Shown: positions 10,581 to 63,411 of the stretch, piece by piece
Numbering within the stretch: the stretch's first letter is position 1
Layout: every line of letters starts with the position of its first letter
NCBI RefSeq assembly: GCF_964204645.1
Contig: NC_134033.1
Coordinates: 4,798,231 to 4,862,230 of the forward strand
Length of the DNA stretch: 64,000 bases
Source of the DNA: Tubulanus polymorphus
Lineage: Eukaryota > Animalia > Nemertea
Direction: 5' to 3'
Program-made: the position numbers and the translations under genes
The notes under the pieces: generated by a model
Seen by the model: only the letters and a program-made list of their open reading frames with translations
Database searches by the model: none
What the model was told of the DNA's origin: nothing

Positions 10581-12580
10581 CTGAAAAAGAAATATTAATT
10601 TTAGAAATAATTGTGCACTCCATTTTAATCATTTTAAGGGTGGCGCCTTTTGAGCCGGTAACTCAAAAGGATAACTGATATATGGTGTGAAAACTGAAGA
10701 TACGGTATGGCAGTAACTAACCAGAGCAAATGACCTAAGAGCTTCAGATAATAGGTGATGATTTAGACTGCGCGATGTTTCGCAATCCCACATCTAAATC
10801 GACTACCTTGCATTATTACCGAAAAGTTCATTCAAACTCGTTTAATGATAGGAATTTGGCTACAAAAAATGTTTATACTTTGTTTCTTATTTCAGTAGAG
10901 TTGACCCGGCCGGCCAGCCAATCTCCCGTGCATCATTTTTTAAATCATGATCAAACTAACACTAACAGACCCGACAGTTATAGAAATGAACTCATTACAA
11001 ATTTTATAGCAGTTTACAAAACAAAACTTACCCGATCGATTGGGAGAAACAAGGAATGAATTTATTAGGGTTTTCTGTTGCTTCACAGAAAACCCTATTG
11101 AAATTCGCGTGATTATTATTATTTTTTTCCCTTTTCCACACAGTTTTTTTAAAAGTGTAAAGGCTTCCTTACCTTACCGCTGTCGCCGATACCATCAGTA
11201 TGATATCCTTCAGCTCCCTTCAATCTCCAGATACTGCATGGGAATTTTGATAAATCCACGTTATAGGCACTGTCGAGCCGTAAACATCGGAAATTTGGCT
11301 CCGTTCAATTAGTAGCCATGTTGTGTTTTCTTTCCGAAATTTCTCTCTTCTTTATGAGGAAGAGCTATCGAATTATTCCCTCTCTTCTCCACAATCAATT
11401 TCAAAGTCAATTTTATGAATTTATTGCTCAGCGGGTCCGAGTCCAAGAGTTTACGAGTCCGGCGTTCGCGTGTCTGACAGGTTTACGGGCATTTGTTTGT
11501 TACCTCTTTAATATTTTTAATTTCTTGTTATTCCGGTTATTTCATTTAAGTATATTGCTGATCAGTTCATGTAACCAAAAGCGTCAATAAACAGATTTTG
11601 AATTGATCAAGTTTATATCAAGGTCGTTGAGTCGCGGCGGGCTGCTAGAATTACGTTCGTCTCAGAGAGAAAACAAACGACAGAAAAGTATCAGGTGATT
11701 ATCGATAGCCCACTACGGTACACACAGTTGACAAACAGTGTTAGGCCTGTGCCGGTTGGTGCGTACTGAGAATAAATATACTGGTTGGTCAGTTGGTTCG
11801 GTTGTGAAGTGTGGAAGCTAAGAAAGCCTATCCGCAGTAGGCCATCCGGTTGAAAATATCGTAAACAGCTTGGAACCATCAGAAGTAGTAAACACAAGGA
11901 TTCAGATGGTTTTCCGGGCTGCCGAATATGTGAGAAGTTGCGATTTATTTGCTTGCATATGTACATAAATTTTTTACTGTACTTTTGATAATATATACAC
12001 GTATTTGTTGTTAAGAAAAAAATATTTAAATCATTTAAGTTATTACTGTTATTGGCTACGATTATGTATGCATCTCACTATTCTACAGTCATAAGATGTT
12101 TTATAATATTTATTAGCCTACCGGTACCAGTAGGCCTATTTAGTTGTGCTGTTGTTAAGTGTTTTGACTTTAATAGACCTACATACATTCTTAGTTTTCC
12201 ATTTTATTACCTTCTTATCTAACGGTCCTCCTTTCAGGTGTGACGAATTTTAGGATCAATTTCCCAAGCCAAACATTCTTCGTGTTTGCATGATTAAACA
12301 GTCATCTCCCGTCACTTACAGTCTAGGCCAACTACCGTTTGATTTCCAACGTGACAACCATGTAGTTTGTATGACAGTTAAGATACAGTTTTGGTATCTA
12401 AAGCTTAGGTGTGAAAGATAACGGTACATCATATATCTAATCCATCAAAATCCACGTGGAAACACCGTAATCTGGCAATCTTCCAAATCATTTCCGGGTT
12501 TGACTTCTGGGCACATCTATCCATCGCATTGGGGACGCTGGGTAGCGTAAAGCCGAGGGAATATCGAAAATGAAACGCGG

Positions 12581-15855: not shown

Positions 15856-16689
15856 TTATACATGAAATTCGACAGCTTCCATATTGTGAAGATCTCTTGC
15901 CAACAATGCTGCATCAATTCCAATTGATGCCGCAGTTCCTCCGCCTGGAATTGTTGCCGCAATGCCACTCGCCATTTCCATAGCTGCCCCTTGGTAATCG
16001 CCTTCACCCAAACGCCATAGTGCAAAGATACTCCCAAAGATCAGCCCAGCGACTGGGATCTTTTTCAAAACCGCTTCACTGCCCATCTTTCCTAACTCTT
16101 TCGCAGCAACCTGCCCTACTTCCTTGGCGGCAACTTTTGTTGCGATCTTTGCACCTGTCGCAATGAACCGCTCGATTTGTCCATATTGACGTGGTCCTGT
16201 TGTATCTACCCGCATGATCCTCCAAGTGATATCAGTGTAACCACGTCTATGGGCGCTAAACTCTAAACCATCCTGAAGAAACCCCATGATATGATTTATT
16301 GTGAAGCCGAATTCACGATCATCTATTCTTCTGGTGGCTAACTCAGGGCAGTTTTCTGTTGCAGTTGGGAATACTTCGATAATTGTGGCTGCATACGTTG
16401 TGTTCCTTATTTGGTACTGTATGTTTGCTATCCCCGGACTCTGGGAATCAATCCGGCCTCCCTGATTCCGAACAATTGTACCTTGAGTCAAAAGCTGTCC
16501 GACGTCTACGTGTCGTTCATGCATCCGAACAATTAGTGCCCTAAGGTTATGCCTCTGATCGTAGTTTGACTGTGAAATGTCTTGCTCATCTGGCCCACGG
16601 TATGACACTTCCATCACACTGTGATATATGGCATTGGACTTCCGAATTGTCTTATGAATGGTCTTCGGGACAACCGGAACAAACGACAT
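15856..16689 (-). CDS. 277-aa uncharacterised protein with a C-terminal Gly/Ala-rich hydrophobic helical (glycine-zipper-like) domain
   Basis: Uninterrupted ORF with an AAAATG start context and an upstream splice acceptor (TTTTCAG at about 16718-16724). C-terminus: VLKKIPVAGLIFG...GDYQGAAMEMASGIAATIPGGGTAASIGIDAALLARD. Confidence 0.8.
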   Translation of the reverse strand: MSFVPVVPKTIHKTIRKSNAIYHSVMEVSYRGPDEQDISQSNYDQRHNLRALIVRMHERHVDVGQLLTQGTIVRNQGGRIDSQSPGIANIQYQIRNTTYAATIIEVFPTATENCPELATRRIDDREFGFTINHIMGFLQDGLEFSAHRRGYTDITWRIMRVDTTGPRQYGQIERFIATGAKIATKVAAKEVGQVAAKELGKMGSEAVLKKIPVAGLIFGSIFALWRLGEGDYQGAAMEMASGIAATIPGGGTAASIGIDAALLARDLHNMEAVEFHV

Positions 16690-16974
16690 TTTGACAAGAA
16701 CCGTTTTTGGTAAAAGCTGAAAATATAGATAAAATTATATCCGAGATATGTCCGACAAGGGAAAACCATGCTCGAGGCATAAGATCACAATTGAATTTCC
16801 TTGCAAAATAGATTCCGACTAAATTAAATAGTTCCTACCCAGACAAGAATGTCCCTGACAAGAGAAAAAAATTTATCCCCCCAGATAAAATAGTTAACGA
16901 ACAAGTTAAAAATATGACATGACAAATATTGGGTTATTTCCACATAGGCAAACAGTACAAATAAATTATTCTTA

Positions 16975-18401
16975 TATCCTCTGTTGTTCTAAAATCTAAC
17001 CATAATGCATATTTATTGCCGGTATAATAATCAATTTGATTAATATTACAATTTTCAGATGATTTTACTTTTTCATTCATAAAATGTTTTCTAATTTCTG
17101 GCCATTGATCTATCGTTCTCATTCCTTGACAAAATATTTTATTTGCTATTCCTTCGATAGTTATTTCTACTTTTGTTATTTCAGGATTATAATACTTATC
17201 AACCTGTATTTCGCCATTAGAATATGTTGCAATGGTAAAAAATATTAATATACCTATATATTAATAGATCTTCTTGGGAAGTTAATATTCTCATTAATTA
17301 TTTCATCACTTGCATTGATAGTTACAGTTTTAAATTTGTCAATATAATCATATAATAATGAAAATCCTTGATTGTATTGAGTTTGAATTATACTTGAAAT
17401 ATTTTCATCAGTTACTGTATCATATTCTAAACATATATTCGATAATTTATAACCCATATCTTTAACAACGGTAGATAATACAATTTCATTTACAGGAGCA
17501 AATGTTATCTCAAATATAACATCTTCTTGAATTGCATATTTATATAAAGGTGCATTATTATTTATCAATTCAAAGTCTAATGGAATTTTATATTTGCTTC
17601 GATAAATATTTTTTATCAATTTATCCATAGCATTAGTTAATATTGCGCTATTAGCTTCAGATCTTAATTTATTTTGGTTTTCTGATTGGATGCCTTGAAA
17701 TATCATATTCTATTCTTTAGTTAACCATAAATCTTTATAATGCATGAATAAATTATAATCATCTCATGAGAAAACTGTTTCTGGACCAATCTTTATAGTT
17801 AATTTTTTAATCAAATATCTTCCAACGTTATCAACAACATAATTATTATTATTGCCAGTTACTTTTATATCGGCTGAGAAATAAATACTATTTCGAACAT
17901 AAAAAGTATTTTGTGTTAATCTAGGGATTCTAACATATAAAGTTTCATAAGGATTAATATTAGAAGGGTTTTGAGTAATTATATGATGTGATCTTTCTGC
18001 TTTAATAGCCTTAGATATTCTATGATTCTTAGAAGGATTGATATAACTCCCACTCATTTATTTAACAAAAAATTAATTATTTATTTTTTATCATATTCAC
18101 TAACCAAAAAATAATAACACTTACAACTGTAATTAAAAATAAAATAATATGTTCAGCAGCAAAGTTAAGAATATTCCCAGTAGATTTCAATTTAAAACCA
18201 ACAATTGATGCAATAATTCCTGGTAAAGCTGCAGCAGATTTTTTAGATAGTTCCCATAAATATTTTGCTAATTTTTTTAAACCATCCTTAACTTTATCTT
18301 GTATAGAATTATTATCATTCGGGGGTTTATCTGGTTTATTAGGATTTGGTGTAGATTTTAATGAATTTGATATTGCTAAACCAATTGTTGTGAATACCAT
18401 A
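16975..18401 (-). mobile_element. Fragment of a second copy of the same Polinton family (3' end of the coiled-coil/TM gene plus most of the major capsid gene)
   Basis: Peptides are nearly identical to those of 43112-44955 (NKPDKPPNDNNSIQDKVKDGLKKLAKYLW; YVRIPRLTQNTF; KYALWLDFRTTED). No TIRs. Confidence 0.93.
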
Positions 18402-29779: not shown

Positions 29780-32700
29780 ATGGCGGAAAGTAGACCATTT
29801 ATAAAGGTAGATAATTCTAAAATGCGTATCGGGGGTGACAAAAATACGGCGACAATAACTACAACTCTCAAAGACATCGACGGATCTGCTAAGAATCTAG
29901 GTAATTATAGAGTTTAACCATCAGAACTCGTGCTTTATTATCACTATTAGTTTTAATTTTTCATAATAAATGTAGACAATTCTGAATTGAATATCGACGG
30001 TGACAATAATACGACGACAATATCTACAGATTTCCAAGGCATCGGTACAGCTTCTGAGAATCCAGGTAATTATAGATTTCAACCAACAGGATTCATTTGT
30101 ACAGTTGTGACTTGAGTTTAGATTTATCTAAGATAATTAAGAAGCCAATAAGAAGATACGTGTCTGAAGATTCTGAAGGCAAAAATGGACCCCCTCACCT
30201 GATTGTTTTTAGGTCTTAATAGATGAAGGACCAATGGTCCAGTGGCTCTCCAAACTTTGCGAAGTAAAAATCTTTCACCATGTACGTAACGATTCATAAG
30301 GAAAAAAGAAAATTTACTCGGTTTTTGTCACCGTCAACTTCTAAAAAATGACCTTTATTAGAACAAGAATAAAATCTTCTTCGAAAGTTTGATTATTGGA
30401 ATTTGCAACAAATGTTCACAGTTTCAATGCAACCCGAGAGAGAGAGAGAATGACATAGGCCTAAAGTTGAAACAAAAATCGAATAAAAATCAACAAGTAT
30501 TATAAATAAGAAATTGAACAATTCAACTAGCTTAAATCTAGTGTACTTTAGCAACATTCAGTTAAATATTAGTTGTAATGGTAGAATCAGAGTTGCCTGA
30601 AAACACAAAATTCCCATTACTATTGTAAATGGTAGTTTGTGTGTTTTGGGCGATTTGAAGTGGTTCTAATGGTATCTGTTAAAATGATCCATCGAACGGA
30701 TGGCTTATTGAAATATTTGGGGGTCTTAGGTTTCATATATAATTGTAACACATATGACCCCCTAAACATGAGACCCAAAAGGTCTTAGGTCTTATGTTTA
30801 GTGAAATCCGGGAGGAAAATTTGCAATTGTTTTTCTTTTCGTATACCCAAGATATGCCGAAATTTTATACAATGCTGACTTTTTGTTGAATCTCATTGTC
30901 ATTTGGTTGCTGGTTTGATCATGGTTACAACGTTACAGTAACGTTAACTCGGATAATGTCCAGTCGGTACAACAGCCTGACTACTTCTGATTACAAATGG
31001 TTTAATAGAATTTCGTCGATGATTGTTTCCCAGGAACAAAGCTGCCACCAATAGGTATATTTTGGGATATTGAAAATTGTCAAGTACCAAAAGGGAAGTC
31101 GGCGTTTGACGTGGCTAACCGTATTCGAGACAAATATTGCGCTGGATCCAGCCTCGTCGAGTTTGTCTGTGTTTGTGATACCAGCAAAGAAAATCGCGAA
31201 GTTGAATATGAACTTGGTGAAGCTCAGGTAAATATCTGCATTACCTCTCAAATAAGGAAAAATCTCACTCAACTTGAATAAAGACTAAAATAACTTCCAT
31301 CCGAGTTTCTGGTAGTTTTTAGTTCACTTATTGACCGTCATCCATCCGTCCATATATGGAATGAAATTATTCTGGGAAGGTTCAAAGACTATTCAATATT
31401 TCGTCTTGATATTTGGTTTGTACATGAATCTACCCCTAGACACGTCTGTAGCCGAAACATGGACTGATCAGAATCATGATCGATAGCCATTGGTATGGTC
31501 GTCACAGAGTAGCGACCGTAAAGCCCTCATTTTGTTAGAATGATAAGTCATTTGTTAGCACGGTTTGTTTTCCATGTAAAACAAAGTTCAAATGTCCGGA
31601 TTAGAGGTTGCAATTAGCACAGATCAAATTTAGAATTTCTCAATTTTAGACAATTAGACAATTTCTTAAACATCATCCATATAAAGTCTTGTGGGACATT
31701 GAAATTCATCGCAGAGCTTTAATTTCTTATCTCTAATACAAGATAGCACACAAAGCTCATTTAGTCTCATCTGACTTGCATTGTTCTCTTTCCGTGGCTC
31801 CAAGTCGGTGCATATATTTCTTTCGCCCATTTAGCGGTCTGCTGGGTGTTTTTGGGCACCAGTAATTGTAAAAGTGGGGTTTCAGATCAGAGGTCGAGAG
31901 GTCGAGACACCACTCATCACCACAAGTAATTTTTTTTCCTTATAAATGGGGGAGAATGAACACCAACCAGAAAATAATAATGTTAATGAAAATCAATATC
32001 ATTGTCCATATTGTAAAAAATACATCGATAAATCCCAAAAATCACGACATGAAAAATCTGCAAATCATATAAAAAATGTAATAGATTTTGAAACTCCAGA
32101 AAATTCCAATGAAAGAAAAGAACGATTAGAAAATACGAATGTGGATGAAATAAAATGTGAAGTTTGTAATGAATTTATAATAAAAAGGAATTATAATAGA
32201 CATCTCGAATCACAAAAACATTATTGAAATTTAAATAAAAATGTTTTAGGATCAGAATATTTTGATAATAAACCTCAACAAGTAAAAAAAAATCAACTTC
32301 AAAAACTAAATCCATTTCAAATAAACCTTACATGGAAAATGTTAGAAATTATATTGATTCACTAGAAATAAAAGATACAATTGAAATTTTAGAAACATTA
32401 CATAGTAAAATTGGTCCTGCAGCTATTCTATTTAGATTTTTTAAAGGTACAACAATAGAAGATTATAGTAAATTTAATGAAATAATAGAAAAAATACTAG
32501 ATTTGATAACAGATGTTGAATATCCAAAAATTAGTATCTCTGGGAAAGTAAGTTTTATAATGTCAGAAGAAAATATGAATTATAATATTCAAACACTCTC
32601 TGAAGAAATAATTTCAAAAACACAAATAAAAGAGAAGTTAGAAAAAATATTAAATGAATTTAAACGTCATATTGAAGAAAGATATTTTGAGGGTTCTGGC

Positions 32701-35700
32701 TTAACGTTGAATGAAATAATATATTTAGATTTAAATGTTTATAATACAAAAAGAAATAAAACATCAAAAAGTAATAAAATGTTTAAAAATGATTCAAACT
32801 TTACAACAGAAAAGGATATTAAAGCATCATCTTATATTAAATTACCATTTATAACAAAAGCAGTAATAAATATTCAAAATGAAGATAATAAATGTTTTCT
32901 ATGGTCAGTTATTAGTTGCTTACATCCATCACAGGAAAATGTTTGTAGAATAACAGATTATCGGAAATATGAAACATTATATAAAATTGATCAATATCCA
33001 GTAACTATAAAAATGATTCCTAAAATAGAAAAAGTTAATAATTTAAAAATAAATGTATTCGAATTAATGCAATTACCAAAGACAAAAGGTGAAAATATTA
33101 AAGATTATACATTGGAAGCTTTATATTTAACAGAATATTATGATGATGAAAATGCTATAGATTTGTTATATTATAAAAAAGATGAAAATGAACATTATAT
33201 GTGGTTAAAACAAATTGATTTATTCTTTAGAACAACAGAAAGTGATCACCATAATAAAATGTATCTATGTAGAAAATGTTTATCTAAATTTATAACTGAG
33301 AATGCGTTACTAAAACATAAAGAATTATGTGATAATAAAGATTTTTGTAAATTAATAATGCCAACAGAACAAGATTATAAATTGAAATTTACTAATCATA
33401 AATTTAAGAATATTGTTCCTTTTGTAATTTATGGGGATTTTGAATCATTGAATAAAGAATTAACTAATCAAGATAGAAAAGAAATATATAACAAAAAGCA
33501 ATTATTAAAATCAATGGATAAAGGAAATGAATTAAATGAAGACACAATGCTGCTTATGGAATTTATATAAAATCAAATTATCCTGAATTATATGAAAGTC
33601 AATATATTTCTTTTAGAGGTGAAAATATAGTTAATGATTTTGGTGATAAAATGATTGAATTAGAAAGTGATTTTGCAAAATTATTAAACAAAAATAAAAG
33701 AATAGTTATGACAAAAGAAGATGAAATTGATTTTAATTATGCAACTCATTGTTGTTATTGTGAAAAACGTTTTTATTCATTTGATAAAAGAGTTTGAGAT
33801 CATGATCATTTGAATTCAAAATATCGTGGAGCTGCTCATGAAGATTGCAATTTACAAGCTAAAAAAGTAAATTTTGTACCAATATTATTTCATAATTTAT
33901 CAGGATATGATACCCATCTATTTATAAAACAATTATTGGGAAAATTGGGCGCAATTATCAAGAAATAGAAGAATATAATGCTATGAATGAAGCAAATGTA
34001 AGAAAATATGATTTTAAACTATTAGCTAAAACATCTGAAAATTATATTTCATTTCAATTTGGTTGCATTAGATTTTTAGATTCTTATAGATTTCTAGCAA
34101 GTTCATTAGATAATTTATCAAAAAATTTAGTTGATAATGATTTTGATCTCGATATTATTATCCAAATGAACAAGATTTTAAATTATTGAGATATAAAGGC
34201 GCAATTCCTTATTCATTTTATAAAACACACAATGATTTTAATGTAACAGAATTATTAAAAGATCAATTTTATGATCAATTAAAAGAGGATTATGTGAAAG
34301 ACGAAGTTTTTAATAGAACATTAAATATTTGGAACCATTTTAAGATGAAAAATCATGTTGAATTAGTTGATTTATATTTAAAATCAGATGTTATGATATT
34401 GGCTGACATATTTGAAAAATTTAGAGAAGTTAATTTGAATCATTTTAATGTTGATCCTTGTTATTGCTACTCTAGTCCTGGTTTAACCTGGCAATGTGGT
34501 TTAAAATATACAAATGTAGAATTAGATTTATTAAAAGAACCAGATATGGTTTTATTATTTGAAAAATCAATTAGGTGGAATTAGTGGTGTTATGGGAGAT
34601 AGATATTTTAAAGCAAATGATGAATATAAATCATTATATATTGACGCCAATAATTTATATGGTTGGGCAATGATGCAACCTCAACCATATAAAAATTTTA
34701 TATTAACAGAAGTTGAAAATGGTGATAAAACTGATTGGGAAAGCGCAATTGCGAGTTTAAAAGATGAAGCACCAATTGGTTATTTCTTTGTAGTTGATTT
34801 AGAATATCCTGAAAATATAAAGTTTAAACAAGAAACTTACCTTATTGCCCAGAACATTTAACTGTAGATGATAGTTATTTAAGTGAATACCAGAAGAAAA
34901 TAAAACCGAAAGATCATGTTTTTACAGAAAAATTAATACTTACTCAAAATAATAAATACAATTATATTGTTCATCATAGAATGTTAAAATTTTATCTAAA
35001 ACAAGGAATGAAATTAAAGAAAGTACATAGATATATTGAATTTAATCAATCGAAGTGGTTAGAAAAATATATAGATTTCAATACTCAACAGAGAACCATA
35101 TCAAAACAGATTTTGAAAAAGATTTCTTCAAATTGATGAATAATAGTTTTTATGGTAAAACATGTGAAAATATTAGAAATAGAAATGATATTGAATTAGT
35201 AAATAATTCTGAAAGATTAAGACATTTACAATTAAGTCCTAGACATTTAGGAAATAAAAGATTTGAAGATTATTTAACAGCAGTTAAATTAAAAAGAACA
35301 TCAATGAAATTTAATAAACCTATATTTATTGGTTCGACTGTTTTAGAAGTATCAAAATTATTAATGTATGATTTTTATTATAATGTTTTACAACCACTTT
35401 TTGGGGAAAAGCATATTGAAATATTATATTTTGATTCTGTAACAGCTGACACCCCAATATTATTAAAATGTAATAATAAAATATTGATAAGAAGAATTTC
35501 AGAAATAATTCCAAAACAAAATGAATGTTATATTTCATATGGAGAAAAAGAATTAATACAAATAAATGGTTTAATGGATGTTTGGACAAGAAATGGATGG
35601 AAAAAATTAAAGAATATTATTAGGCATAAAACAAATAAGAAAATCTATAGAGTTAGAACTAAATTAGGATTTGTAGATGTTACAGAAGATCATAGTTTAA

Positions 35701-38700
35701 TTAAACGAAATGGTGATGAAATAAAACCAACTGATATAAAAATTGGAGATGAATTATTACATAAAAGATTTTTCCAAAGAATGAATCATATGTTATTTGA
35801 TGAAATTATTGATGATATTTATAATATAGAACCCGAAACATTAGAAGAAAAGAATATTTTATCAAAGGATTTTTCATGGGAGATGGTTCAGCAGGTGTGT
35901 ATAATTATGTTAATCGCACTCAATATCGTTGGTATTTATGCAATCAAGATTTGAAATTATTAGAAAGAATAAGGAAATTCTGCGAAGAAGTTTATTCATA
36001 TAAAACATTGAGAATCATGGATCATATGAAATCATCCGCGGTTTATAGAATATTTGTAAATAATCCTAAAGATTTTGCTACAAAATATAATGATGAATTC
36101 TATATTCATGCAATAGTGAAAAGTAATACTTCAACAAAAGAAAAGATAGTTCCAGATTATGTATTGAATGCAAAAAATAATTTAAGAAAGTGGTTCTTCA
36201 TTGGATTCTATGCCGCAGATGGTTTAAAAAGTTTCCAAAACCGCAAAACATATCCTTTGCTCAAAAAGGAAAAGTTGCTATATCAGGATTGAATATATTA
36301 TGCAGTTCATTAGGATTTAATATGAATATAGAATTAATTAAATCTAAACCAAATTGTTTTAATTTAAGGCATGTAGAAAAAGAATTAACAGAAGAAGTTA
36401 AAGATTTATTTGAAATATATAACCCAACTGACTATGTTTATGATTTATCAACAGATGATGGAACATTCAATTCTGGGTTCCCATTAATCCAAAAAAAATA
36501 CCGACAGTTACATACTAAAAATCAAGACAAATGACATAACAAAAGACTTAAAAACATTAAAACATCATTTTGATTTTAGCAATTATCCCAAAGATCATGA
36601 ACTATTTAGCAATGATAATAAAAAGATCCCTGGTAAGTTTAAAGATGAATTAGGGGGTGATGAAATGATTGAATTTGTTGGGATAAGAAGTAAAATGTAT
36701 AGTTACAGAACAAAAGATCATGAAGCTAAAAAGTTAAAAGGAATAACAAAACATGTGGTTGATAAACATATAGAATTTCAAGATTATATAAAGTGTTTAT
36801 ATAAATCAATTGTAATGAAACACAAAATGTTTAAGATCAGAAGATCATGAGATGTACATTAATGAAGTTGAAAAAACTAGTTTAAATCCATTTGATGATA
36901 AAAGGCATAGATTATGGTATAAAAACATTACCTTATGGTCATTAAAACATAAAATCAATATCATCATAATCGAAATCACTATTGGTTTCTTCATTTTCAT
37001 TTAATTGTTTAGGTTCTTCTTCCATTCCATTTTTTTCATTTAAATAAAGTTCTATCTTGTTCCACATTTCATCTCGCTCTCTTTGTTTCTTTTTGTTTGT
37101 TAATTCGTCAAATGGAATTATAATATCTAGGTTTAAATGATTTACAATCTTATTTAAAAAGAATTCATAATTTATTGAATCTGTTATTCTATTTTCCAAA
37201 TGATACATTAATATTTGTTTGAATATTTTTTTTTATATTTTCCGTATCTTCTTCTGTTAATTTAGGTTTTTCATAATAATCGTTAAATAATAAATATAAA
37301 TACATTTTCTTTTGTTTTGTGTTAAATGTTGACGGAATAATTGTATTTATAATATCTTTTTTAGTTATTTCACCATTTTTATTTTCTATTATTTTCATTT
37401 TTTCAAGCCATTGCATATATTCTGGTGTATGATCTTCTATAGAAAATATTTTAGAAATTTCATCTAGATAATTTAATTTTGGTTCTATGAGAAAATCTCT
37501 AGTTTTTTCTTCACCCCATAAATTCCTTTGCCATCCACAATCAACACAAAATAACACAGTACCTTCTTGTCTTAAGGTCGCATAAATACATTGCGGGCAT
37601 TTTTGTTTATAATTTATTGGTAATAGATCTTCATTAAGCTCTTGGTATTTTCTTACGTTTTCTTTATGTTTTATTGTTCTATTATGTAGATTTGAATTAC
37701 TTGTTGTAATAATCAATTTACAATATTTACAATAATATGTTTTTCTTGTTAATTCATTATATTGTTTTTCTAACTTTTCAACTGTTTCTTTATTATCTGG
37801 TAACGTTTTCTCATATTCTATTTTTTCTAATAAATTATCTTTTCTTTCATTGAATTCAGTTTCAAATTTATTAGAAATTTTATCTTTATGTACTTTACGA
37901 AATTGATGATTCTCCCAATCTTCTATATTTTATTCGACAAGGCTCGCAGATATGATCTTTTATATTATCCTTGTCATAGAATAAGAAAGGTCTTTTCCAA
38001 ATAATTTCAGGTTCAACTTCAACAGAATTACTATTACTTTCGTTACTATCAACATTAGACGTTGCGCCATTAATTCTACACTTCTCTGAATGTTTTTTAA
38101 CATAATTTCTTGAGAATAATTTATTACATTTTGGGCAGTTTATTTTAGGGGGTTTATAATTTTCATCATGTTTTTTCATATGTCGAGCCATATTACTTTT
38201 TCTTAGAAGTTCACCACAAATTTCGCATGCTATCTTCTCATCCATTTATTTAGGAAAAATTTTATTAAAATTAATTTTTAGTGATGAGCGGTAATTTTTT
38301 TATGTTATAAATAATGGTAGAATTAAAAGAATACAGAATATTTGTTGATTCTAGAAGACTTACAAATTATAAATCTCATAATTTACTAGTTCAATTAGAT
38401 AGAGAATTTAAGAATTGTGTTGATTTAAAATTAGTAAATATAAGTTTATGTAACTCATTTTACAATATATCAGATAAAACTGATGAACATAGAAGCCTTC
38501 TTATTTTTGATAAACTTGAAAAAAAATGGATTCAACTTATGCTTACACCAGGATTATATAATTTAGAAACATTAGCGCAAGAAATTAATAGAAAAGCTCG
38601 GATTAGATTAGGTAATGGTAATTCCAAATTTAATATTAAATTCATAAAAAGTGAGAGCTCTAATAAAATTAAAATAAAGTTTGATGATGAACTTATTAAA

Positions 38701-41700
38701 CTTGTTAAATCTGATACATTGATGACAAGAAGACATACTTACACGGTAAAAAAACCTTTTGCAAAACTGTTAGGAATTACTCCAAATGATTTTATTGGTG
38801 TAAACATACACGGTAACTCAAATATAATACCTTTTACACACTTTTATATTTATTGCAATTTAATCGATCCTACAAAAACATTTGAAGCAACTAAAGATAC
38901 AACATGTAATTCTAGTATATTAAATATTTTACCATTGAAGAACGTTAAACAATTTGGAACGCAAATAAATTATAATTTAGCTGAATGTGATTTTAAACCT
39001 TGTATTCCTTAATTTAACAATTTTAAATTAGAAATAAGAAATCATAATGGTTATTTAATTGATTTGAATAACTTTCCTGTAATTTATGAATTAGTTATAA
39101 GATGTAAAGAGTAATTTTTTCACTATATAAATGAATATAACTGTTGGACCGAGTATATGTTTTGGGTTTGATTTTAAACGTGAGAAAGAAATGAAATTTA
39201 ACATTAATGATGTAATTACACATATTAAAAATATTGCATTTTCTAATGAAACAACATTTGAGTATAAAACAACAATAGATAAAGAAACTTTAAATGTAGA
39301 AAAGATTACTAATTTAATTAGAGAATCTTTAAGATTTTATGAATTAGATGAAGATTTTATCATCGATGATATTAGAAAAATAATAATTGAAATATATACA
39401 AATGAAACTAGTAATAAAATAAATGTTGAATTAATCATCACTAAAATAACTAAATATTTTGAAGATAGTAATTTTTTTGATAAATAAATGAGTGATAATA
39501 AGTGGATAATAACTGGATTATATAATGGCGCCTTACTATCAGTTGGAACTGTTGGTTATTCAATGGTATTAAAAAAAGTATTCAAAATGGGAAGTGTTAA
39601 TGTTGATAGATTTGATATAAATGATATTTTAAAGTTAACATTAGCAATTACTTTATCTAATTCAACTATTGATTATTTGGAAAAACAAAAATATATTCCT
39701 CCCATATAAATGCATAATTTTTTTGCTAAATAAGTGGCTTCTGCAATTATAACTATTATAGGATCGGCAATTGTTAACGCTTTAGCATTTACTGGTGGTG
39801 GTTATTTATTTAAACATATTGATAAAAATAGTTCATCAGGAGAACAAAGAGGACATAACTTAGCATTAGAGAAATATAATAAAGCTGCAGAAGAATATAG
39901 AGAAAAAAGACCAAAACTATATGGATTACATCAATAAAGAATTATATGATCAGAAGATTTCACATAGAGATTTTCAATCAGTTGATGATGCAATGAGTTT
40001 ATATAACGCGGTAACCAATAAAGAAAAATTACATCTATACAAACCTAAATTATCAGATTATTATACCCCAAGTAATGAACAGAAGAAATATGAAATAATT
40101 TGGATTTTAGGTGGAACTGTTGTTGTTATATTTGTAGCATATAAGTTTACTAATTAGTAATTTTTTTTGCTAAATAAATGGAAGATAATGTTGATAATAT
40201 TGATATTATTCTTCATGATATAAATAAAACTAAATTAGAAATATATTTAGAAAAACAAATATTAGAATTTGAAAGTGACTTTTAAAAGTTAAAAAGAAAA
40301 AATATCTAAAAAGTAAAATTATATATTATTTGATTATAAGTGGTTCGGTTACAATTAGTTCTGTAATAACATTTTTAGCAATATTCAGCCCATTAACCCC
40401 TTTAGCTATATCAATTGGTGTGTTAGGATTAAGTTCAAGTGTTTTAACTGGTATAAGTTCAAAATTGAATATTAAAAGTAATAAAGAAAAAATTAAAACT
40501 AATATAAAAGAAATTAATAAATTAAAGAATACACTAGATTATATAATAAGTTTAAATGGCCATATAACAGTTGAAGAACAAGATAAATTATTAAAAGAAT
40601 TAATAAATTATTAATTTTTTAATTATATAAATGGGGTTTCCAAAAGCTTTCCAATATAATAAATCAATTAAATATAATATTCCTGCAATAGATTTTAAGA
40701 AAAATATTACATATAGAAATGTAGTTTTAAATTCATTAACTAATTTAGAAATTTATGTTACTGAATCACAGTTTTTTATTTCTAAAATGGAAAATATATT
40801 TAATACATATGAAGTTACTTTTACTCGAGATGAATACCATATATATAAAGTAAAATCTAATATGAAATATTGGCAGAACCAATTAGATTTTGCTGTTTAT
40901 TCTGCAACAACAGGATGTGGAATAAGTTGGAATGATCATTTAAATAACTTAGATAAAAATTTGAAGTATTCTGATTTAAAATTAATTCACACAATATTTA
41001 GATTTCACACATATTTTCAAATCAGAATAATATTAAATGAATTAGAATGTCCTTTACCCGGGTCTAAATATTTTAAAGAATTGGATAATAATATTAATAT
41101 ATCTAAGTTTTATAAAATATGTAATGAATTTAATATAAATATTAATTCCGATTTCAGAGCGCATGGTATATTGCAAGGTGTTGGTGAAGAGTTTGAAATA
41201 AAAAGAATTGATTATATGCATAGAATTTCAGCTTATCATAATTATAAAGATGATAATAATAATGGTTGGGTTAATTTCATTTTAGAAAATGGTGAAGGTT
41301 TTACAAAATCAGGTATACGAAGAATAAATCAATCTATTAGAATTTATTTGATATGCATTTTAGGCGCTCAAGTTGAAGCAAGATCCCCAATAATTGGAAA
41401 TGATAACACTTCATTCGATGCGCAGAAACAGTTTAAAGTTTTATTTGAAGATTCAATTCATAATGATAAAAATAGATCGATTCCAGAAAACATTATAAGA
41501 TATCAAAATTATTTAGATAAATCACATATTACATTAAATTATTGTATATGCCCTAATCTTTTAATTATTTCTAATGATTTAGAATTAAAGATGGGAAACA
41601 TAACTGGTTATAATAATCTAATTAAAACTGCTACAATAAATAATTCATTTGGGTTAAATGATATAAATAAAAAGATTATCACTGCTCCAAAATTAATGGA

Positions 41701-44700
41701 AGGTGAAAAAAATAAAAAACATATTCAATCAACAGAAACTAAAACTAAGAATATTAAATTGGATAATGATTCCAAAATAAAAGATTACAATACTACAGAA
41801 AATGGTGCCGTACGGCACCCACATGGTGATATTAAAACTGATAATGGTGCCGTATGGCACCCACACGGTGTTATTCAACATAATATAATTAAAACTGATA
41901 ATGACAATAAATCCCATGAAAATACTAAATTAGCTATAACTTGTATAGGAATTGTTATAGGAGGAATATTATATTTTAAATTTTAATTTTTTTATTATAT
42001 AAATGGATGTAGAAGGTGGAGAAGATATTGGAATGGATCCTTTTGATGAACCTGGTATAAGTGATGAACAACCACCTGATTTTGATGAAACAAGTTTTAA
42101 TGATGGTAATGAGCCAGAATATAATAATAATTTGAATATACCTGATTATATTAGAAATGCAGAATCACAATGAAATCCTGAAAATTTAGACCCAGATTTA
42201 GTAAAACAAGATTTAGATAATTTAAACAAAATACCTAAATTAGAACGTATAATTGAAAAGTCTAAACTTAACATAAATGATGAAGACGTTGGACTTTTAG
42301 CAGATCAATTAAAATTTTTAGATAATGGTAAATGTTATTATCGTTTGAAAGGTGATTATTATATTGATATCACTTATAAAAATAATAAAAATAAAATATT
42401 ATCAGAATCAACTTTAGAAAAATTAAAACCAGATAGAATTAAAATAATAAGTAATAGTAATGAAATAACTGATGTTACACAAAAAGAAATAGATGATAAT
42501 ATAGATGTATTTAAACAAATAATTAATGAATTATTTGAAATAATCAAAAAGAAATCAGAAACAGAAACAACTTCTGAACAGAATATAACTTCCAAAAATA
42601 GTAAACTTAAATCAAATAAAGTTCCAATTGAAAAACTTTTACCGAATGGATTAATTGATGCAACAGATCAAGAATTAGAAGATTTAGATATATTTTCTGA
42701 TAAAGCAATTAGAGAAATTATTAGTATAAGACTTGCATCTAATAAAATTGCGCATGATAAAAGTATAAGAGATTTTAAAATTAGAACTTTAGAAAAAGAA
42801 TTAACTGATAAAAATAAAGAAATAGAACAATTAAAGTCTGATTTAGATCATCAAGTAATTGATGAAATAGAATATAGGCAAAAAGAATTACGTTTAGAAA
42901 AAGAAAAAGATGATTTAGAATATAACATAGAATTACAAAAAGAAGAAATTAAATTATTGTTAAAATCATATGATTATAATATTAATAGATTAAAAGTTAT
43001 TTTTAAAGATTTGTTGATTAAACCAAATTCTGAAATATCATTAAAAGATAGAATAAAGTTATTATTTAAATTAGAAGGAATAACAATTCTTTCAATTCTA
43101 ACAGCTGTAACTATGTTATTTACAACAATTGGTTTAGCAATATCAAATGCTTTGAAATCTACTCCTACTCCCAATAAACCGGATAAACCCCCGAATGATA
43201 ATAATTCTATACAAGATAAAGTTAAGGATGGTTTAAAGAAACTAGCAAAATATTTATGGGAACTATCTAAAAAATCTGCTGCAGCATTGCCAGGAGTTAT
43301 TGCATCAATTGTTGGTTTTATATTGAAATCTGCTGGGAATATTCTTAACTTTGCTGCTGAACATATTATTTTATTTTTAATTACAGTTGTAAGTGCTATT
43401 ATTTTTGGTTTAGTAAACATGATCAAAAATAAATAATTAATTTTTTTTGTTAAATAAATGAGTGGGAGTTATATAAGTCCTTCTAAGATTTCTAGAATAT
43501 CTAATGCTATTAAAGCATAAAGATCACATCATATAATTACTCATAACCCTTCAAATATTAATCCCGATGAAACTTTATATGTTAGAATTCCTAGATTAAC
43601 ACAAAATACTTTTTATGTTCCAAACAGTATTTATTTATCAGCCGATATAAAAGTAACTGGTCATGATAATAATTATGTTGTCGATAATGTTGGGAGATAT
43701 TTGATTAAAAAATTAATTATAAAGATTGGTCCAGAAACAGTTTTCTCATTAGATGATTATAATTTATTTATGCATTATAAAGATTTATGGTTAACTAAAG
43801 AAAATAGAAATAATATGATATTTCAAGGTATCCAATCAGAAAACCAAAATAAATTAAGATCTGAAGCCAATAATGCAGTAGTAACTAATGCTGTAGATAA
43901 TTTGATAAAAAAGATTTATGGAAGCAAATATAAAATTCCATTAGACTTTGAATTGATAAATGATAATGCACCTTTATATAAATATGCAATTCAAGAAGAT
44001 TTTAGCAGATCAATTAAAATTTTTAGATAATGGTAAATGTTATTATCGTTTGAAAGGTGATTATTATATTGATATCACTTATAAAAATAATAAAAATAAA
44101 ATATTATCAGAATCAACTTTAGAAAAATTAAAACCAGATAGAATTAAAATAATAAGTAATAGTAATGAAATAACTGATGTTACACAAAAAGAAATAGATG
44201 ATAATATAGTTCTTTTTATGTTCCAAACAGTATTTATTTATCAGCCGATATAAAAGTAACTGGTCATGATAATAATTATGTTGTCGATAATGTTGGGAGA
44301 TATTTGATTAAAAAATTAATTATAAAGATTGGTCCATGATAATGCACCTTTCCATTAGACTTTGAATTGATAAATGATAATGCACCTTTATATAAATATG
44401 CAATTCAAGAAGATATTATATTTGAGATAACATTTGCTCCTGTAAATGAAATTGTATTATCTAGCGTTGTTAAAGATATGAGTAATAAATTATCGAATAT
44501 ATGTTTAAAATATAACACAGTAACTAATGAAAATATTGCTAGCACAATTCAAACTCAATACAATCAAGGATTTTCATTATTATATGATTATATTGATAAA
44601 TTTAAAACTGTAACTATTAATGCAAATGATGAAATAATTAATGAGAATATTAACTTCCCAAGAAGATCTATTAAAGGTATATTAATATGTTTTACTATTG

Positions 44701-47700
44701 CAACATATTCTAATGGCGCAATAAAGGTAGATAATCATTATAATCCTGAAATAACAAAAGTTGAAATAACTATCGAAGGAATAGCAAATAAAATATTTTG
44801 TCAAGGAATGAGAATGATTGAAGAATGGCCAGAAATTAGAAAACATTTTATGAATGAAAAAGTAAAATCATTTGAAAATTGTAATATTAATCAAATTGAT
44901 TATTATACCGGTAATAAATATGCGTTATGGTTAGATTTTAGAACAACAGAGGATAATTCATTACATGGTTCTGGGAAAAAACTACAGAACACTAAATATG
45001 GAATACAATTATTCATGGCGAAGAAAAGAGGGGACAAAAATTTCAAAATGCATATTTATATTATATCTGACGCACAATTAAATATTGTAAATTCACAATT
45101 AGATAGTATTCAATATTAGAAATATAAAGTTAAAATTAAGGATATATAAATGGGCGGTAAAAAAACTCCTAATACTAAAGAACAATATTTAAGAAACTTA
45201 TTATTACAACCCTGAGAGTTCGGTTGCTTATTCTTCTACTAAAAATATATGGCGTAAAGTAAAACAAGATAAATTAGATAAGATAATCCCACAAAATTTA
45301 GTTAAATATAAAGATATAAATGAATTGAATGGAGCTTCCCACTTTATAGAAAAGATGCTGTACAAACATCAAATGTTTTAAGAAAATTTCTTTCGGGTGA
45401 TAAACTAAAACCAGAAAAAATACAAATACAATTTGATGATGGAAAAGAGTTTGATAATTCACTTGTTCATGAACTCTTAGATAATCATAATATTAAATAT
45501 TTTTCAACAAAATCAGATAAAAAGCAGCAGTTGTTGAACGATTTAATAGAACATTAAGAACAAGAATGTGGAAATATTTTACAGCAAATAATACTTTTAA
45601 ATGGATTGATGTTTTACCAAAATTGACAGAAGGATATAATAATTCTTATCATTCTTCTATTGGAATGAAACCTATTGATGCTAGAAAACCTGAAAATGCT
45701 GAAATTGTTTGGAATAATTTATATGGAGCATTTCTTGTAGATGATTTTGGTGAACCTAAATTTAAAGTTGGTCGAAATGTTAGAATTTCTAAGTATAAAA
45801 AGATATTTGATAATGGATACGATCGAAATTTTACTAGAGAAATATATGAAATAAAAAAGGTAATAACAACAAAACCATATGTCTATAAATTAGAAGATTT
45901 AGATGGTGAAGAAGTTGATGGCTACTTTTACGAAGAAGAATTAAGTTTAACTACTGAAAATCTATAACAAGAATATAAAATTGAAAAAGTATTAAAAACA
46001 AAAACTATTAAAAGAAAAAAATATTCTTTAGTAAAATGGGTTGGATGGCCAGATAAATTCAATGAATGGATATTATCAAGTGAAATTAAAAATATATAAA
46101 TGAATAAAGAATTATTTATATTTGAGCCTCATAATATTTTAATATCTGGCGTAACAAATTGTGGAAAAACTTATTTTATATTCAATTTATTAGAAACTGT
46201 TTATGAAAACTATTTTGATAATATAGTATTATTTTGCCCAACGTATGAATTTAATCAAACTTATGATAGAAACTTTACTAGAAATAATAAATTTATTATA
46301 TTAGATCCTAAAACAGTAAAAGAAAATTTAGATAATTGTATAAAAAAAGCAATTGATATTTATAAAGGATCAAATATATTATTTATCATAGATGATTGCG
46401 CAAATTTACATGATTCAAAAGTTAGAGAAAGTGAGTTATGCTATTTAGCTTTTTCTGGCAGACATTTTGGGATAACAACATGGGTTTTAAATCAAAAATA
46501 TAATTCAATTGTTAAAGACTTTAGAGAAAACATTAGATTTCTAGTTTTATTCTACAATAAAGATAGAAAATCAATGAAAAATGCACTTGAGGAAAATGAT
46601 ATTATTCCACATGATTTACATAATGAATATATGGATAAGTTGAAAAATATTAAAAGATCAAAATTACTATTTAGATTACAACACCCATTTAAATATGAAT
46701 TTATTTAAATTCAATTAGTTTGTTAATCAATTACATATTTAGTTACATTCTAGTTGAATTCTAGTTATTGGTAGTTGTAACAAAAATCAACTAGATTTTA
46801 ACAATATTGTAACTAGCTTGTTAATCTAGTTTAATTCTAGTTACATTCTAGTTGAATTCTAGTTATTGGTAGTTGGAACAAAAATCAACTAGATTTAACA
46901 AGAAATAAACAAAAATAACAATATTTCAACTAGCTTGTTAATCTAGTTGAATTCTAGTTACATTCTAGTTGAATTCTAGTTGCAACATCACAACTAATTT
47001 TTTTGTTATATAAATGGTAGGTGAAAAGAAAATAAAATCTAAAAATGGTGATGTTCCAATTGAAAAAACTTTAGATGATTTAGGAATAAAAGAAACAAAA
47101 TTAATTCCAGATGATGGTGTTTTAAATAATGTTACAACAAATAATAATTATGAATATTATCTTTACTGTAAACATCAATTAGAAATATTAATAGCATCTG
47201 GAAATTGTAAAAATTTTGTCGGTAAAAATTTAACTTATAATGAATTAGATACAATGAAATCAGATGAAATTATTAGATTATTTAAGATTCATGAAGCCGC
47301 GAGAACAGCTAGAATTAATGACGCGATATCAGAAAATGTAGTAAAAGGTTATAATAAATTATGTAATTATATACTACCAATTGAAGATGAAAATAGATTA
47401 TATTCCGATTTAAAAAATGATTATTTAGTTATGACTGAATTAAATAAATTGGATTGGATATTTATCATTTCAATTAGGTGGATTCATGACATTATTATCA
47501 ACTGGGGTTATAACATTTTCAAATATTGAAAGTAAAAATATTTCTATAATAAATGAGCGAGGTGGAAGAAGTGAAGAAAAAACCGAGATCACGGAAACAA
47601 ATTGAATGGTCTCGGCAATTAGGAATTAAATCACAAGAATATAAAAAAGCTGTAAAAGAAAAAATAAGTAATAAAAATGTAAATAAAAATAGTGAAAATA

Positions 47701-50700
47701 TTGTTATTTCTAATCCTTCTAATGATAGAATATTTGATAAATGTCTATATTTTACAGTTGGATTTGTAATTGTATTCATTTTGATTGGGTGTAATTGGTA
47801 TAAGAAATCAAATAAAATTCATGATATTAATAATTCTGAAACAACTGCTATCAAAAATGAAAATGCTTCTGAAATTCCAAAATTGACAATAAAAAAATGG
47901 ATTAATATTTTAGAAAAAAGCAAAAAAAATAATTGAATATCTCACTACTTTTGTCTATCTATGCGGAGCAATTAAATTGTCCAGATAAGTCATTTCGGAT
48001 TCTAGATATTCATTATTTTTATTAATTTATTTTGTTTTTACTTGAATATTGTATTACAGTCGTTTCTTATTATTAGTTTTTTCTTAAATTGAAAGATGGC
48101 AGCACTGGGTGTGATGCTAAAATGAATATTTGAATTTGAATTTGTTAATCAATTAACATAGTAATTGATTACTAATTTGATTAAAAATTATATCATAATT
48201 AAGTCAAAAATCCATAATTCATTTATCGGTTTTCATTCTTATATTCTTTTCATTCGGAATAATTTATAATTTCAAATTTCACATATTTTTTTAGCACCAG
48301 CAACATTTACTTAGGTGTTTTAGCTAAGTATATAAGGCAATTCATTCAACCAGTGGAGTAGCTCTGGCCAGCAGAGGCATTTTGAAAATGCACCTTCGTC
48401 CACTCTCCGGGTTTCTCCTTCGGTTTCGAATTTCGAGATTGGTAGAAATTACATTAGGTGCCTTTAATATAATGTGATTTCTACCAATCATTGAAGGAGA
48501 TCTCGGTTGACGTGGGTCGCCGGGAGTGTAAGTAGAAATGACGGGGGATAAGCGTCCCTTGGCGCCTTTCAATAACGGGATGCTTATCCCCTGAAAACTC
48601 TATAGGTAGAGGATAGGGCAATTTTGCTAAAACTTACCGTAAAAACATTGAAATATTCCTTTTAATCACGAGAGAATGATGACTATCCTCCTGTCGTCAC
48701 GGCCGAGCTAATTTAAATAAACCTCGCTTTCAGCAACCAATGAAAACGTGGTAGTTCAATGCCGGCTAACTGGCTTGTGTGTGTTGTATGTACTGCGTGC
48801 TTATTATAAAACTGCTAGCTATCCAATATAACAACAACGTTGTGCAACACCTGTTTGATTGATCAATATTCAAATGAAGCACTCTCATATAATAACATGT
48901 AACAGATGTTTGACTGTATGATTGTAGTTGTTTATAAAACGACTAAGGTCATTTTGGATTCTAGATATTCATTATTTTTATTTTTATTTAATCAACAATT
49001 TCTAAATCATGATGACCATCTTCATTTTTCCCATGATATATTATTTTAAATCCTACTAAATCTTTCAATTCCTCTGTACTCAATGAAACCCATTTATCGG
49101 GTAAAAACACTTTAAATTCTCGTGATGTACTAACATTACAGTAGCTTAAATTAGCTGATACTTTCTCTCCATATTTAGTTTTTATCTTTTCTAATTTCAA
49201 TATTTTATGTTCAATTTCTTTTGTAACATCAACTAACTTTTTTATTTCAAATTGTTTTTTTGTTGGTTTAATTCTGTTATTTATTGTTGCTAAGAATGCT
49301 TTTCTATCTTCCATTTATAAGGAAAACAAATTACTTGTGGTGATGAGTGGGGATTACTTCCCCTGTATATAACAAACACGCTTTTAACCGTTCTCACCCA
49401 AGCCTCACGGCATCTATTTATCCGGGTACATTTAACACACGCGCAGCTGTTGTTACGCGCACTCACTGTTTATGTGTGTCACAATTCTACTGCGTAATAT
49501 TTCTAAAATTTCAATTGTATCTTTTATTTCTAGTGAATCAATATAATTTCTAACATTTTCCATGTAAGGTTTATTTGATCTATCAATGTATTTTTTACAA
49601 TATGGACAATGATATTGATTTTCATTAACATTATTATTTTCTGGTTGGTGTTCATTCTCCCCCATTTATAAGGAAAAAAAATTACTTGTGGTGATGAGTG
49701 GTGTCTCGACCTCTCGACCTCTGATCTGAAACCCCACTTTTACAATTACTGGCACCCAAGTACTTATTCTCCATCAAATATCCACAAGGCGACATGGCTA
49801 GTATTGATAAACGCCGCGTAAACGCTGTATAAAGTAGAGTGGTATCAGTGAATTATACGGGATGGTCACTTTTCAAACTGTGTGAGATTAGTAGGTTATT
49901 GCACGTCACACATTCACTACCATTAAATATGATAATTATTTTCAGGTAAAAATTCTTCATGTTAGCGCTACTAGTAAGAACGCAGCCGATAACAAATTGG
50001 TTCAACTGTTACGGGATTTTGGTGAAAATCATTCCCAGCCTGGTACTGTTCTTCTTATCTCAGGTAAAACTACAAATAATATGCACCCCAGTAAAATATG
50101 CTACCGACCTCCACCGTTGAACATATTCAAGCCTATGACTGGCGAATTTATCACCAGCGAATTATTTACTCGGTGATTTGAATTGCTTTTCGTCCAATTT
50201 TAGAAAAATTCGCCCTAGTCTGTCACAGGTTTAACTTCTGAAATTGTGGTGCTATATTTGTTTAGGTGATGGTATTTTCAAGCAGGTTTTGTCGGATCTG
50301 AAATATCGCTGTGGTTTTAAAACTGTCGTGTTACATAATAAGACCGTGTCGAAAGAATTGTTAGCGTTTGCTGATGATCACTGCGTGTTCAGTGAACTAT
50401 TCGATGATTTACCTGAAAGACAACCCAAGGTAAGTTACAGCTGTTTCAGTTGGGTCCGCCGGACTGTTAGAGCTTGTGGGAATACTGTCATAACATTCAC
50501 GTATAAGGGTGGTTTATTTCACAGAAATCGTCAAGCAGCCCAGTTGAATTACTGGTTACAAATTTACCGACTCGACCGCCTGATGCAACGCCCGATAAAC
50601 ATGCCCATAACTTACGAAAGCGTTTGAATCAATTATTTGATAACCGCGGTGGTAAAGTCAAGAATTTGGATCCCGACAAATGTTCAGCTATCATGACGCT

Positions 50701-62252: not shown

Positions 62253-62342
62253 ATATACATACAAGCATTCATAGAATGTGTGCATTTTACGTGACGCATT
62301 GGTAGGTGTTCCATTTCATAGATTACAGGTTTCTCTCTCACG

Positions 62343-63411
62343 ATGAATTTCAGTTCGCAGACGACTTCACTACTCTTTACAACTACTAGAAATCCCTGCT
62401 CACCTTACTTATTCCAAAACGTATTGTCAATCAGCGTAAAACTAGCTGGAGGTTTTCCTATCAGTATCGTCGGAATAATTTTGAATAGTTTCAGCATTGT
62501 GATTTTACGTCGCCAAACTTCAAATCACATATGGCTCTACATTCTGCGATGTCTGGCAGTGGCTGACATAATCTTTCTTACATTTCACATAATTCAAGAG
62601 CCTTTTCGTTTCATTGTCTCCGGTTTGACCCAGGGTAGTCATATGTTCGTGATTCCTACGAGTATGAGTTGGGGTATTCGGCCATGGATCTATCGGGTAG
62701 CTTGGTTACCGAGAAACTCAGCGCAAGTGACAAGGAACTGGATAACTGTACTACTAGTTTTAGAAAGGTCTTTTTCTATCGCTAGGCCATTCTTCGCTAG
62801 AACTCATTTCACAATACCAAGGGTAAGAATTGTAGTTTGTTGTTTCTATATTATTTTTGGTATCTTAGGCTCTCCATTGATTATCGGTACTACAGTAGGT
62901 ATCTGGTTTTATGACGAATGTAATAAAGTCGTCATGAAATCCATCCGCCTGAGCAAGCGATCCCATACGAAGATACTTTCTCATTGAAATATTTACGTCG
63001 ATTGATCACTTTCCTAGTCCTTTGTATAAAGAAATCCTACCTGCTTTATTGCTAATAATTTTCAACAGCCATCTGATATGGACTCTGAAAAAGATTAGTT
63101 CCAGGAGAAAAGAAATGACACACGAAGGCGAACAAAGGCTAGACGTGAAAGCTATCAGGATAGCTGTACCTATTGTTATTTTGTTTGTCGTCTGCGAAAT
63201 CCCTGCTTCGTTCCGATCTTATAACAGTTTCATCGGTCGCTTCGTCAAAATGCCACCTATTAAATACTCTCACACCATCTATACCCTTCAAGAACTGTTT
63301 ACCGATCTTTTACCGACCTTGAACTCGTCTGTAAATTTCTTTATCTATTACATAGCAAACGATAATTTTAGAGGAACTGCAATAAAATTGTTGAGAAGGC
63401 GGCCAATTTAA
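62343..63411 (+). pseudogene. Single-exon FMRFamide-receptor-like GPCR with one frameshift (about 62940-63020)
   Basis: TM1 GIILNSFS, TM2 LAVAD and TM3 RNWITVLLVLER; in a second frame, TM6 FVVCEIP and TM7 LNSSVNFFIYY..NDNFR. Confidence 0.85.

Follow-up and report, generated by a model that had tools for sequence, protein, structure and literature searches.

A poxvirus-type late start motif is shared by a family of animal Polintons and may point to transcription by a helper virus

The stretch of DNA analysed here (the window) comprises 64,000 nucleotides of the nemertean Tubulanus polymorphus (NC_134033.1, positions 4,798,231 to 4,862,230) and contains at positions 31861-49750 a decayed, integrated Polinton/Maverick element, whose genes mostly begin with the same hexamer, TAAATG, in which a TAAAT initiator overlaps the start codon. 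This promoter motif is real, family-wide and beyond what base composition provides. We consider it probable, and the best reading of the data, that this Polinton family relies for its transcription on the RNA polymerase of a large cytoplasmic DNA virus infecting the same cell. That the helper is specifically pox-like for the TAAATG-bearing majority is a weaker claim than the helper reading itself, and we advance it only tentatively. At stake are the expression mode and the autonomy of animal Polintons.

The start motif in the window

A sequence-only reading of the window had listed 15 gene starts and had described 13 of them as TAAATG, and all 13, as well as the two variant starts, TAAATAATG at 38314 and TAAATAAGTG at 39734, were verified by reading. 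TAA precedes 5.3% of the other ATGs of the element, which gives P = 2e-15 for 13 of 15, and P = 4e-14 when the promoter common to 31946 and 49314 is counted once; one duplicated promoter lies behind the starts 31946, 49665 and 49314. The enrichment is found at starts only, as TAAATG by itself shows no enrichment when counted across the entire element (51 versus 39-44 expected). It had further been claimed that most starts follow a common upstream motif, often overlapping the stop codon of the preceding gene. The first part stands, with the exact TAATTTTTT before 10 of the 15 starts (including the instance at 39715), but "often" was too strong, since the exact motif overlaps the upstream stop at two starts (40612 and 41984). 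The compound pattern TAATTT[TG]TT-N3-8-ATAAAT[GA], which was composed post hoc with the sites already known, occurs 11 times in the element, always at listed starts or at the copy at 49665 in the terminal inverted repeat (TIR), with 0.06 occurrences expected from Markov simulations and none in 44.5 kb of flank. The intergenic spaces are tiny, as had been noted, with 0-30 bp in eight of the ten gaps between co-oriented genes. Another sequence, CTCATCAC, is present four times in the window (31913, and on the minus strand 38288, 49347 and 49698), each time at a distance of 33-43 nt before the start codon of the polymerase, VLTF3-like or 108-aa gene, and is a candidate for an extra element of replication-side genes.

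The motif across the family

With an alignment of the packaging ATPase as query, 38 metagenome contigs were obtained among at least 602 pattern matches, and the removal of five near-duplicates left 33 contigs, all of them partial and each at most 11.5 kb long. In these, 110 of the 135 open reading frames (ORFs) that have a relative in another contig start with TAAATG. The share is 33/37 at a GC content below 0.30, 29/34 at 0.30-0.35, 48/54 at 0.35-0.47, and 0/10 in contig L015, and the TAAATG background in the same three GC classes is 0.055, 0.044 and 0.027. When 11 starts overlapping the head of the ATPase gene and two antisense ORFs were dropped, TAAATG was still found at 99 of 122 starts. 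One rule applied to both sets finds TAAATG at 109 of 141 family ORFs versus 17 of 215 control ORFs, the controls being at least 120 viral stretches that were chosen by the motif, with the motif site itself excluded from the count. Repeated family-wide, the motif test thus confirms that TAAATG holds across gene families and GC levels. An AT-rich, Kozak-like background, which the sequence-only reading had itself raised as an objection, does not explain it: AT-richness was rejected as the cause because the motif persists in the highest GC class, and a Kozak context because position -3 is occupied by T, not by a purine, in 84% of 134 starts. In animal translation starts, a purine is preferred at -3 and T is disfavoured.

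The initiator is accompanied by a T-tract. At the 9th to 12th nt upstream of TAAAT, T is found in 74, 67, 83 and 58% of the 109 starts, versus 38-41% at 144 TAAATG sites that are not starts, and at least three T in these four positions are seen at 76 of 109 starts versus 27 of 144 non-starts (p = 2e-16). Each of the ten large gene families and every GC class shows this T-tract. The exact TAATTTTTT was rejected as family consensus, as it is found at only 4 of the relatives' 109 starts and is local to the subfamily of the window.

No family member was found in the viral contig and genome contig collections, and the capsid piece yielded no longer relatives. One cluster (P0055) consists of family ATPases labelled Bartonella sp. 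on contigs of less than 2 kb, which are probably host or virus DNA inside bacterial assemblies. In the coding sequences of the family, runs of six A and of six T reach 0.62 and 0.41 of expectation, versus 0.87 and 0.85 in control viral genes, and this avoidance could reflect a slippage-prone polymerase.

Likeness to poxvirus late promoters

The reading of the motif as a poxvirus-type initiator has become stronger, as the motif is family-wide, is present at high GC, and has an upstream T-tract at the spacing of vaccinia late promoters. In the latter, TAAAT overlaps the ATG and a T at the 10th nt is conserved among other Ts (PMC11980589), and a T-rich core lies 5-7 bp before TAAAT(G/A) (PMC5294985). 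The family has both features, TAAAT(G/A) over the start codon and a tract of T some 10 nt before TAAAT, with the differences that its T peak lies at the 11th and not at the 10th nt, and that it has neither an early promoter class nor an enrichment of TTTTTNT.

The element and its genes

The element is a decayed Polinton/Maverick because it combines inverted termini, a 6-bp target-site duplication, and genes for a protein-primed polymerase, an integrase, a packaging ATPase, a capsid protein and a VLTF3-like protein. It spans 17,890 bp with the termini AGT...ACT, beginning with AGTAATTGTA and ending with TACAATTACT, and its GC content is 24.6% (0.246) versus 37.4% (0.374) in the flanks. The span given in the sequence-only reading, 31911 to 49690, falls short of the real ends at 31861 and 49750. 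The inverted termini are alike over about 180 bp. The features are as follows.

16975-18401, minus strand: part of a second copy from the capsid region, with 91-94% likeness and the motif kept at the capsid start (ATG 18057)
31855-31860, plus strand: left 6-bp target-site duplication, GGCACC, read in the sequence
31861-32041, plus strand: left TIR, containing the promoter motif and the polymerase gene start (96% inverted-repeat match, first mismatch at position 166)
31946-37004, plus strand: protein-primed family B DNA polymerase in many pieces, with N-terminal zinc fingers (DNA_pol_B_2 E = 7e-6 on one piece); start TAATTTTTTTTCCTTATAAATG
35436-36499, plus strand: broken intein with the remnant of a LAGLIDADG endonuclease, in polymerase motif C (between YxD and TDS)
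36942-38245, minus strand: zinc-finger/VLTF3-like gene, split into three pieces and beginning with TAAATG at 38245 (Pox_VLTF3 E = 3e-5, 24.2 bits, just below the 25-bit cut-off)
38314-39060, plus strand: candidate minor capsid gene, start TAAATAATG, no Pfam or PHROG match
39131-40614, plus strand: four small genes of membrane type, the last SLATT-like, with starts at 39131, 39488, 39734 and 40178 and the motif before each
40631-41986, plus strand: intact, family-conserved 451-aa gene with a C-terminal membrane helix (predicted fold at a pLDDT of only 35)
42003-43436, plus strand: gene for a coiled-coil and membrane protein, one internal stop
43458-45119, plus strand: double jelly-roll major capsid gene, broken, with internal duplications (Capsid_N match weak; the intact L001 relative was modelled)
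45150-46099, plus strand: rve integrase with chromodomain, broken (motifs and gene order in common with L001)
46100-46708, plus strand: intact A32-like packaging ATPase (Pox_A32 E = 1.9e-11)
47014-47936, plus strand: two family-conserved genes with starts at 47014 and 47553, motif before each
48988-49314, minus strand: 108-aa gene; its promoter duplicates that of the TIR, with identity at 35 of 36 nt
49482-49750, minus strand: right TIR, in which the promoter and the 5' part of the polymerase gene recur in mirror image (ATG 49665)
49751-49756, plus strand: right 6-bp target-site duplication, GGCACC, read in the sequence

Most genes of the window copy are disrupted by stops, frameshifts and internal duplications, and assignments were therefore in part made through relatives. 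The polymerase belongs to the protein-primed type, as its best full-length relatives have PF03175; the window copy is broken. The window integrase pieces by themselves gave no rve match in a profile search, and the L001 integrase gene matches rve at E = 1.5e-10 and Chromo at E = 1.2e-6. The L001 capsid protein is a double jelly-roll fold according to its model (pTM 0.70), for which the capsids of iridovirus and PBCV-1 are hits at E = 1e-13. VLTF3-like matches were obtained for the window and for L015; two full-length relatives of the gene gave no VLTF3 match by Pfam, and neither the 292-aa protein of L038 nor the 169-aa protein of L015 aligned with the middle piece of the window gene. VLTF3 is already known from a polintovirus subgroup (PMC11131425). 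In L001, a close relative, a deoxynucleoside kinase gene (10343-10981, minus strand; Pfam dNK E = 2e-31) stands behind TAAATG and adjoins the VLTF3-like gene. In the window, 11-bp repeat units with a ATTCTAGTT core lie between the ATPase and the next gene (46701-46992).

In a sequencing run with the same species label, read depth is 91-976 on the element versus 0-14 in the lowest flank bins, which puts the number of family copies, at 90% identity, in the order of tens or higher. The decay of the window copy is at least partly its own, because many reads differ from it. According to the reads, other copies in the same host carry different DNA before 38313.

Transcription by a helper virus and the alternatives

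Under helper transcription, each gene would form a late-type unit of its own, read in the cytoplasm by a viral RNA polymerase that is not encoded in the element. Transcription would begin at the AAA within TAAAT, with slippage there, as has been described for the formation of poly(A) leaders at TAAAT-type initiators (PMC6211774), and the resulting 5' poly(A) leader would stand in for the missing 5' untranslated region and place an A at -3. In L009, L011 and L012, head-to-head ATGs are only 4-6 bp apart, so that any templated leader would have to lie within the neighbouring gene. The integrated element would stay unexpressed as long as no helper is present; upon infection with one it would be expressed, replicated with its own protein-primed polymerase, packaged and integrated anew, in the manner of the Mavirus cycle. 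The VLTF3-like gene may help to recruit or retune the late machinery of the helper. In favour of helper transcription, the nuclear poly(A) signal AATAAA is not avoided in 123 family coding sequences (208 versus 208 expected; 58 versus 46 in the window) and not enriched at 120 gene ends with the next start cut off (18 versus 18.5), in a test run without a nuclear-gene control.

This missing control is one of several points that weigh against helper transcription. L014, L015, L029 and L031 are without the TAAATG motif, and the p-values given above overstate independence because the loci share descent. The integrase and its chromodomain require a nuclear phase. Unlike poxviruses, the element has no early promoter class, and its replication genes, too, are in the single promoter class. 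The early terminator of poxviruses, TTTTTNT, to which the sequence-only reading had also appealed, is not enriched in the element (131 versus 137-148 expected) or at family gene ends (8 versus 6.7); it is scarce inside genes, which alongside the avoidance of A-runs amounts to generic homopolymer avoidance. The earlier helper-polymerase interpretation thus keeps its initiator part and loses its early-terminator part, and helper dependence as such is still what we infer. A scan for the helper by the motif in viral contigs returned at least 120 stretches with one match per locus, 15 of them at an ORF start, and no motif-rich contig was among those listed. Gene expression is said to be seen for coral polintoviruses (10.64898/2026.06.19.733378), and in the cytoplasmic linear plasmids of yeast a comparable initiator, TAAAN, is served by a plasmid-encoded polymerase (PMC6211774), which weakens the case for helper dependence.

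The intein in the polymerase fits co-infection, because homing needs shared compartments. Intact relatives of it are P0204, P0207 and P0208, and of the best 12 intein relatives, six are located in type II topoisomerases, three in protein-primed polymerases like that of the element, and three in family B polymerases, where they occupy the same YGD site. One of these family B polymerases and one of the topoisomerases were checked, and the polymerase proved to be delta-like and the topoisomerase II of eukaryote type. The delta-like polymerases and topoisomerases with related inteins are likely giant-virus genes, an origin suggested by the long multi-intein versions. The intein is no pointer to a poxvirus, because the tested intein-bearing polymerase resembles polymerase delta and no pox polymerase was among its 60 best chains; this, too, counts against a pox-like helper.

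The alternative that retains most credit, though we regard it as unlikely, is a compact nuclear promoter for host RNA polymerase II that is activated by the zinc-finger/VLTF3-like protein of the element, the pox likeness being a convergence on an AT-rich initiator. The element does integrate in the nucleus and has its own candidate activator, TATAAA and AATAAA are found within many motif instances, and the expression said to occur in coral polintoviruses would agree. However, the T that dominates at -3 is the base that animal translation starts disfavour. A TATA box lies 25-30 nt before the transcription start, and one that touches the ATG would place this start downstream of the ATG. Furthermore, AATAAA recurs about every 160 nt on the coding strand in the window without enrichment at 3' ends, and head-to-head ATGs are as close as 4 bp.

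Slightly less likely still is that the family is self-sufficient in the cytoplasm like the yeast linear plasmids, with members or a partner element encoding a pox-related RNA polymerase. The plasmids pGKL1/2 share with the element a protein-primed polymerase, TIRs, AT-richness and the TAAAN initiator, and their transcripts, made by a plasmid-encoded polymerase related to that of poxviruses, have 5' poly(A) leaders (PMC6211774); pGKL elements are described as derived from polintons (PMC11161782). They differ by encoding an RNA polymerase and a capping enzyme themselves, by an early-type upstream element, and by the lack of capsid and integrase (PMC6211774), whereas no RNA polymerase, capping or helicase match was obtained with 36 pieces of the window and 36 proteins mostly from relatives, and the element has no leftover frame or piece for a large RNA polymerase subunit. 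In the relatives, this absence is weak evidence because of their partial contigs. Very improbable is a role of TAA-ATG as a translation device on long polycistronic RNAs, by stop-start coupling or as an in-frame stop guard: neighbouring genes do lie close together (median gap 16 bp, n = 67), but the TAA is the upstream gene's stop in only 8 of 110 starts and not in 102, for which reason stop-start coupling was rejected, first, divergent and overlapping genes have TAAATG too, TAG or TGA would do equally well (among 110 starts TAA 99, TAG 1, TGA 0), and the T-tract at a fixed distance is left unexplained.

Relatives with TATA-type starts

In L015 (1111-8205), 7 of 10 conserved genes have TATAG or GTATA at most 16 nt from the ATG, patterns that were picked after inspecting L015 and that precede about 3% of all its ATGs; several of these starts lie behind a T-tract. 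L014 (532-1125) has two starts, ending in TATAT and TATAGT. The combination of T-tract and TATA-type start in the two contigs resembles asfuvirus late promoters. In the tree, L014 and L015 group with each other within the TAAATG family, but this pairing has unstarred support (94/68), for which reason the promoter switch is no more than a lead. Judged from these promoters, a helper switch in the L014/L015 lineage is possible, and the helper of this TATA-type sub-lineage is possibly asfuvirus-like.

Relation to known systems

The element resembles Mavericks/Polintons (Polintoviricetes; "adintoviruses", PMC8502044; groups 1 and 2, 10.64898/2026.06.19.733378) in its TIRs, 6-bp target-site duplication, protein-primed polymerase, rve integrase, A32 ATPase, double jelly-roll capsid, a size of 15-20 kb and an animal host. 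It differs by the intein in its polymerase and by the maturation protease, for which, adenain-type cysteine proteases included, no match was found in 36 window pieces or in the proteins of the relatives; an adenain-type cysteine protease is present in most group 1 members, and the content of group 2 is variable (10.64898/2026.06.19.733378). We found no analysis of start motifs or promoters of animal Polintons in a literature search that had subscription journals and supplements outside its scope: the word "promoter" occurs 0 times in the main texts of PMC8502044, 10.64898/2026.06.19.733378 and PMC11131425, and likewise 0 times in the available text of 10.64898/2026.10.13.758929 and 10.1101/2023.08.22.554363.

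The virophages Mavirus and Sputnik and the polinton-like virus (PLV) Gezel-14T share promoters with their giant virus helpers (10.1101/2022.07.28.501842). Mavirus, like the element, integrates with an rve integrase; all three differ by protist hosts, mimivirus-type motifs and a demonstrated dependence, whereas the motif of the element is a different one and its helper was not found in the scan described above. Membership in the virophages (Virophaviricetes) was rejected, as there is no protease and as the Sputnik and mavirus capsids score below those of iridovirus and PBCV-1; we do not class the element as a virophage, and it would merely work like one. Also comparable are PLVs associated with entomopoxviruses, among them a divergent maverick-polinton from entomopoxvirus occlusion bodies (Barth et al., 2024; PMC11296320). 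These are Polinton-related and proposed poxvirus hyperparasites, with one lineage as a divergent mavpol2 branch; they differ in coming from insect occlusion bodies and in partly missing the rve integrase. "Promoter", "TAAAT" and "transcription" occur 0 times in the main text of that study.

If every gene indeed carries a helper-type promoter, the virophage lifestyle would extend to integrated animal elements, and genome assemblies would point to undiscovered pox-like viruses of invertebrates. A Polinton virion has never been observed (10.64898/2026.06.19.733378). As a generalization that may well fail, we suggest that a widespread branch of animal Polintons consists of endogenous virophages tuned to the late promoter of the virus they parasitise (TAAATG, pox-like; T-tract and TATA, asfuvirus-like); start motifs would then predict undiscovered large viruses and would explain why virions are unseen in uninfected animals, and hosts may keep copies as an inducible antiviral defence.

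Further observations in the flanks

The flanks of the window contain the remnant of a Pao/BEL retrotransposon (12551-14725), a 22-bp tandem array (1940-3100), and intron-poor receptor-like frames (5878-7044, 784-1308 and 62322-63411). A 292-aa frame on the minus strand (15856-16734) matches phage proteins with its C-terminal 90 residues (PHROG 23178, E = 1e-20; also 18972 and 34252), and this phage-like C-terminus in animal DNA makes a horizontal transfer possible.

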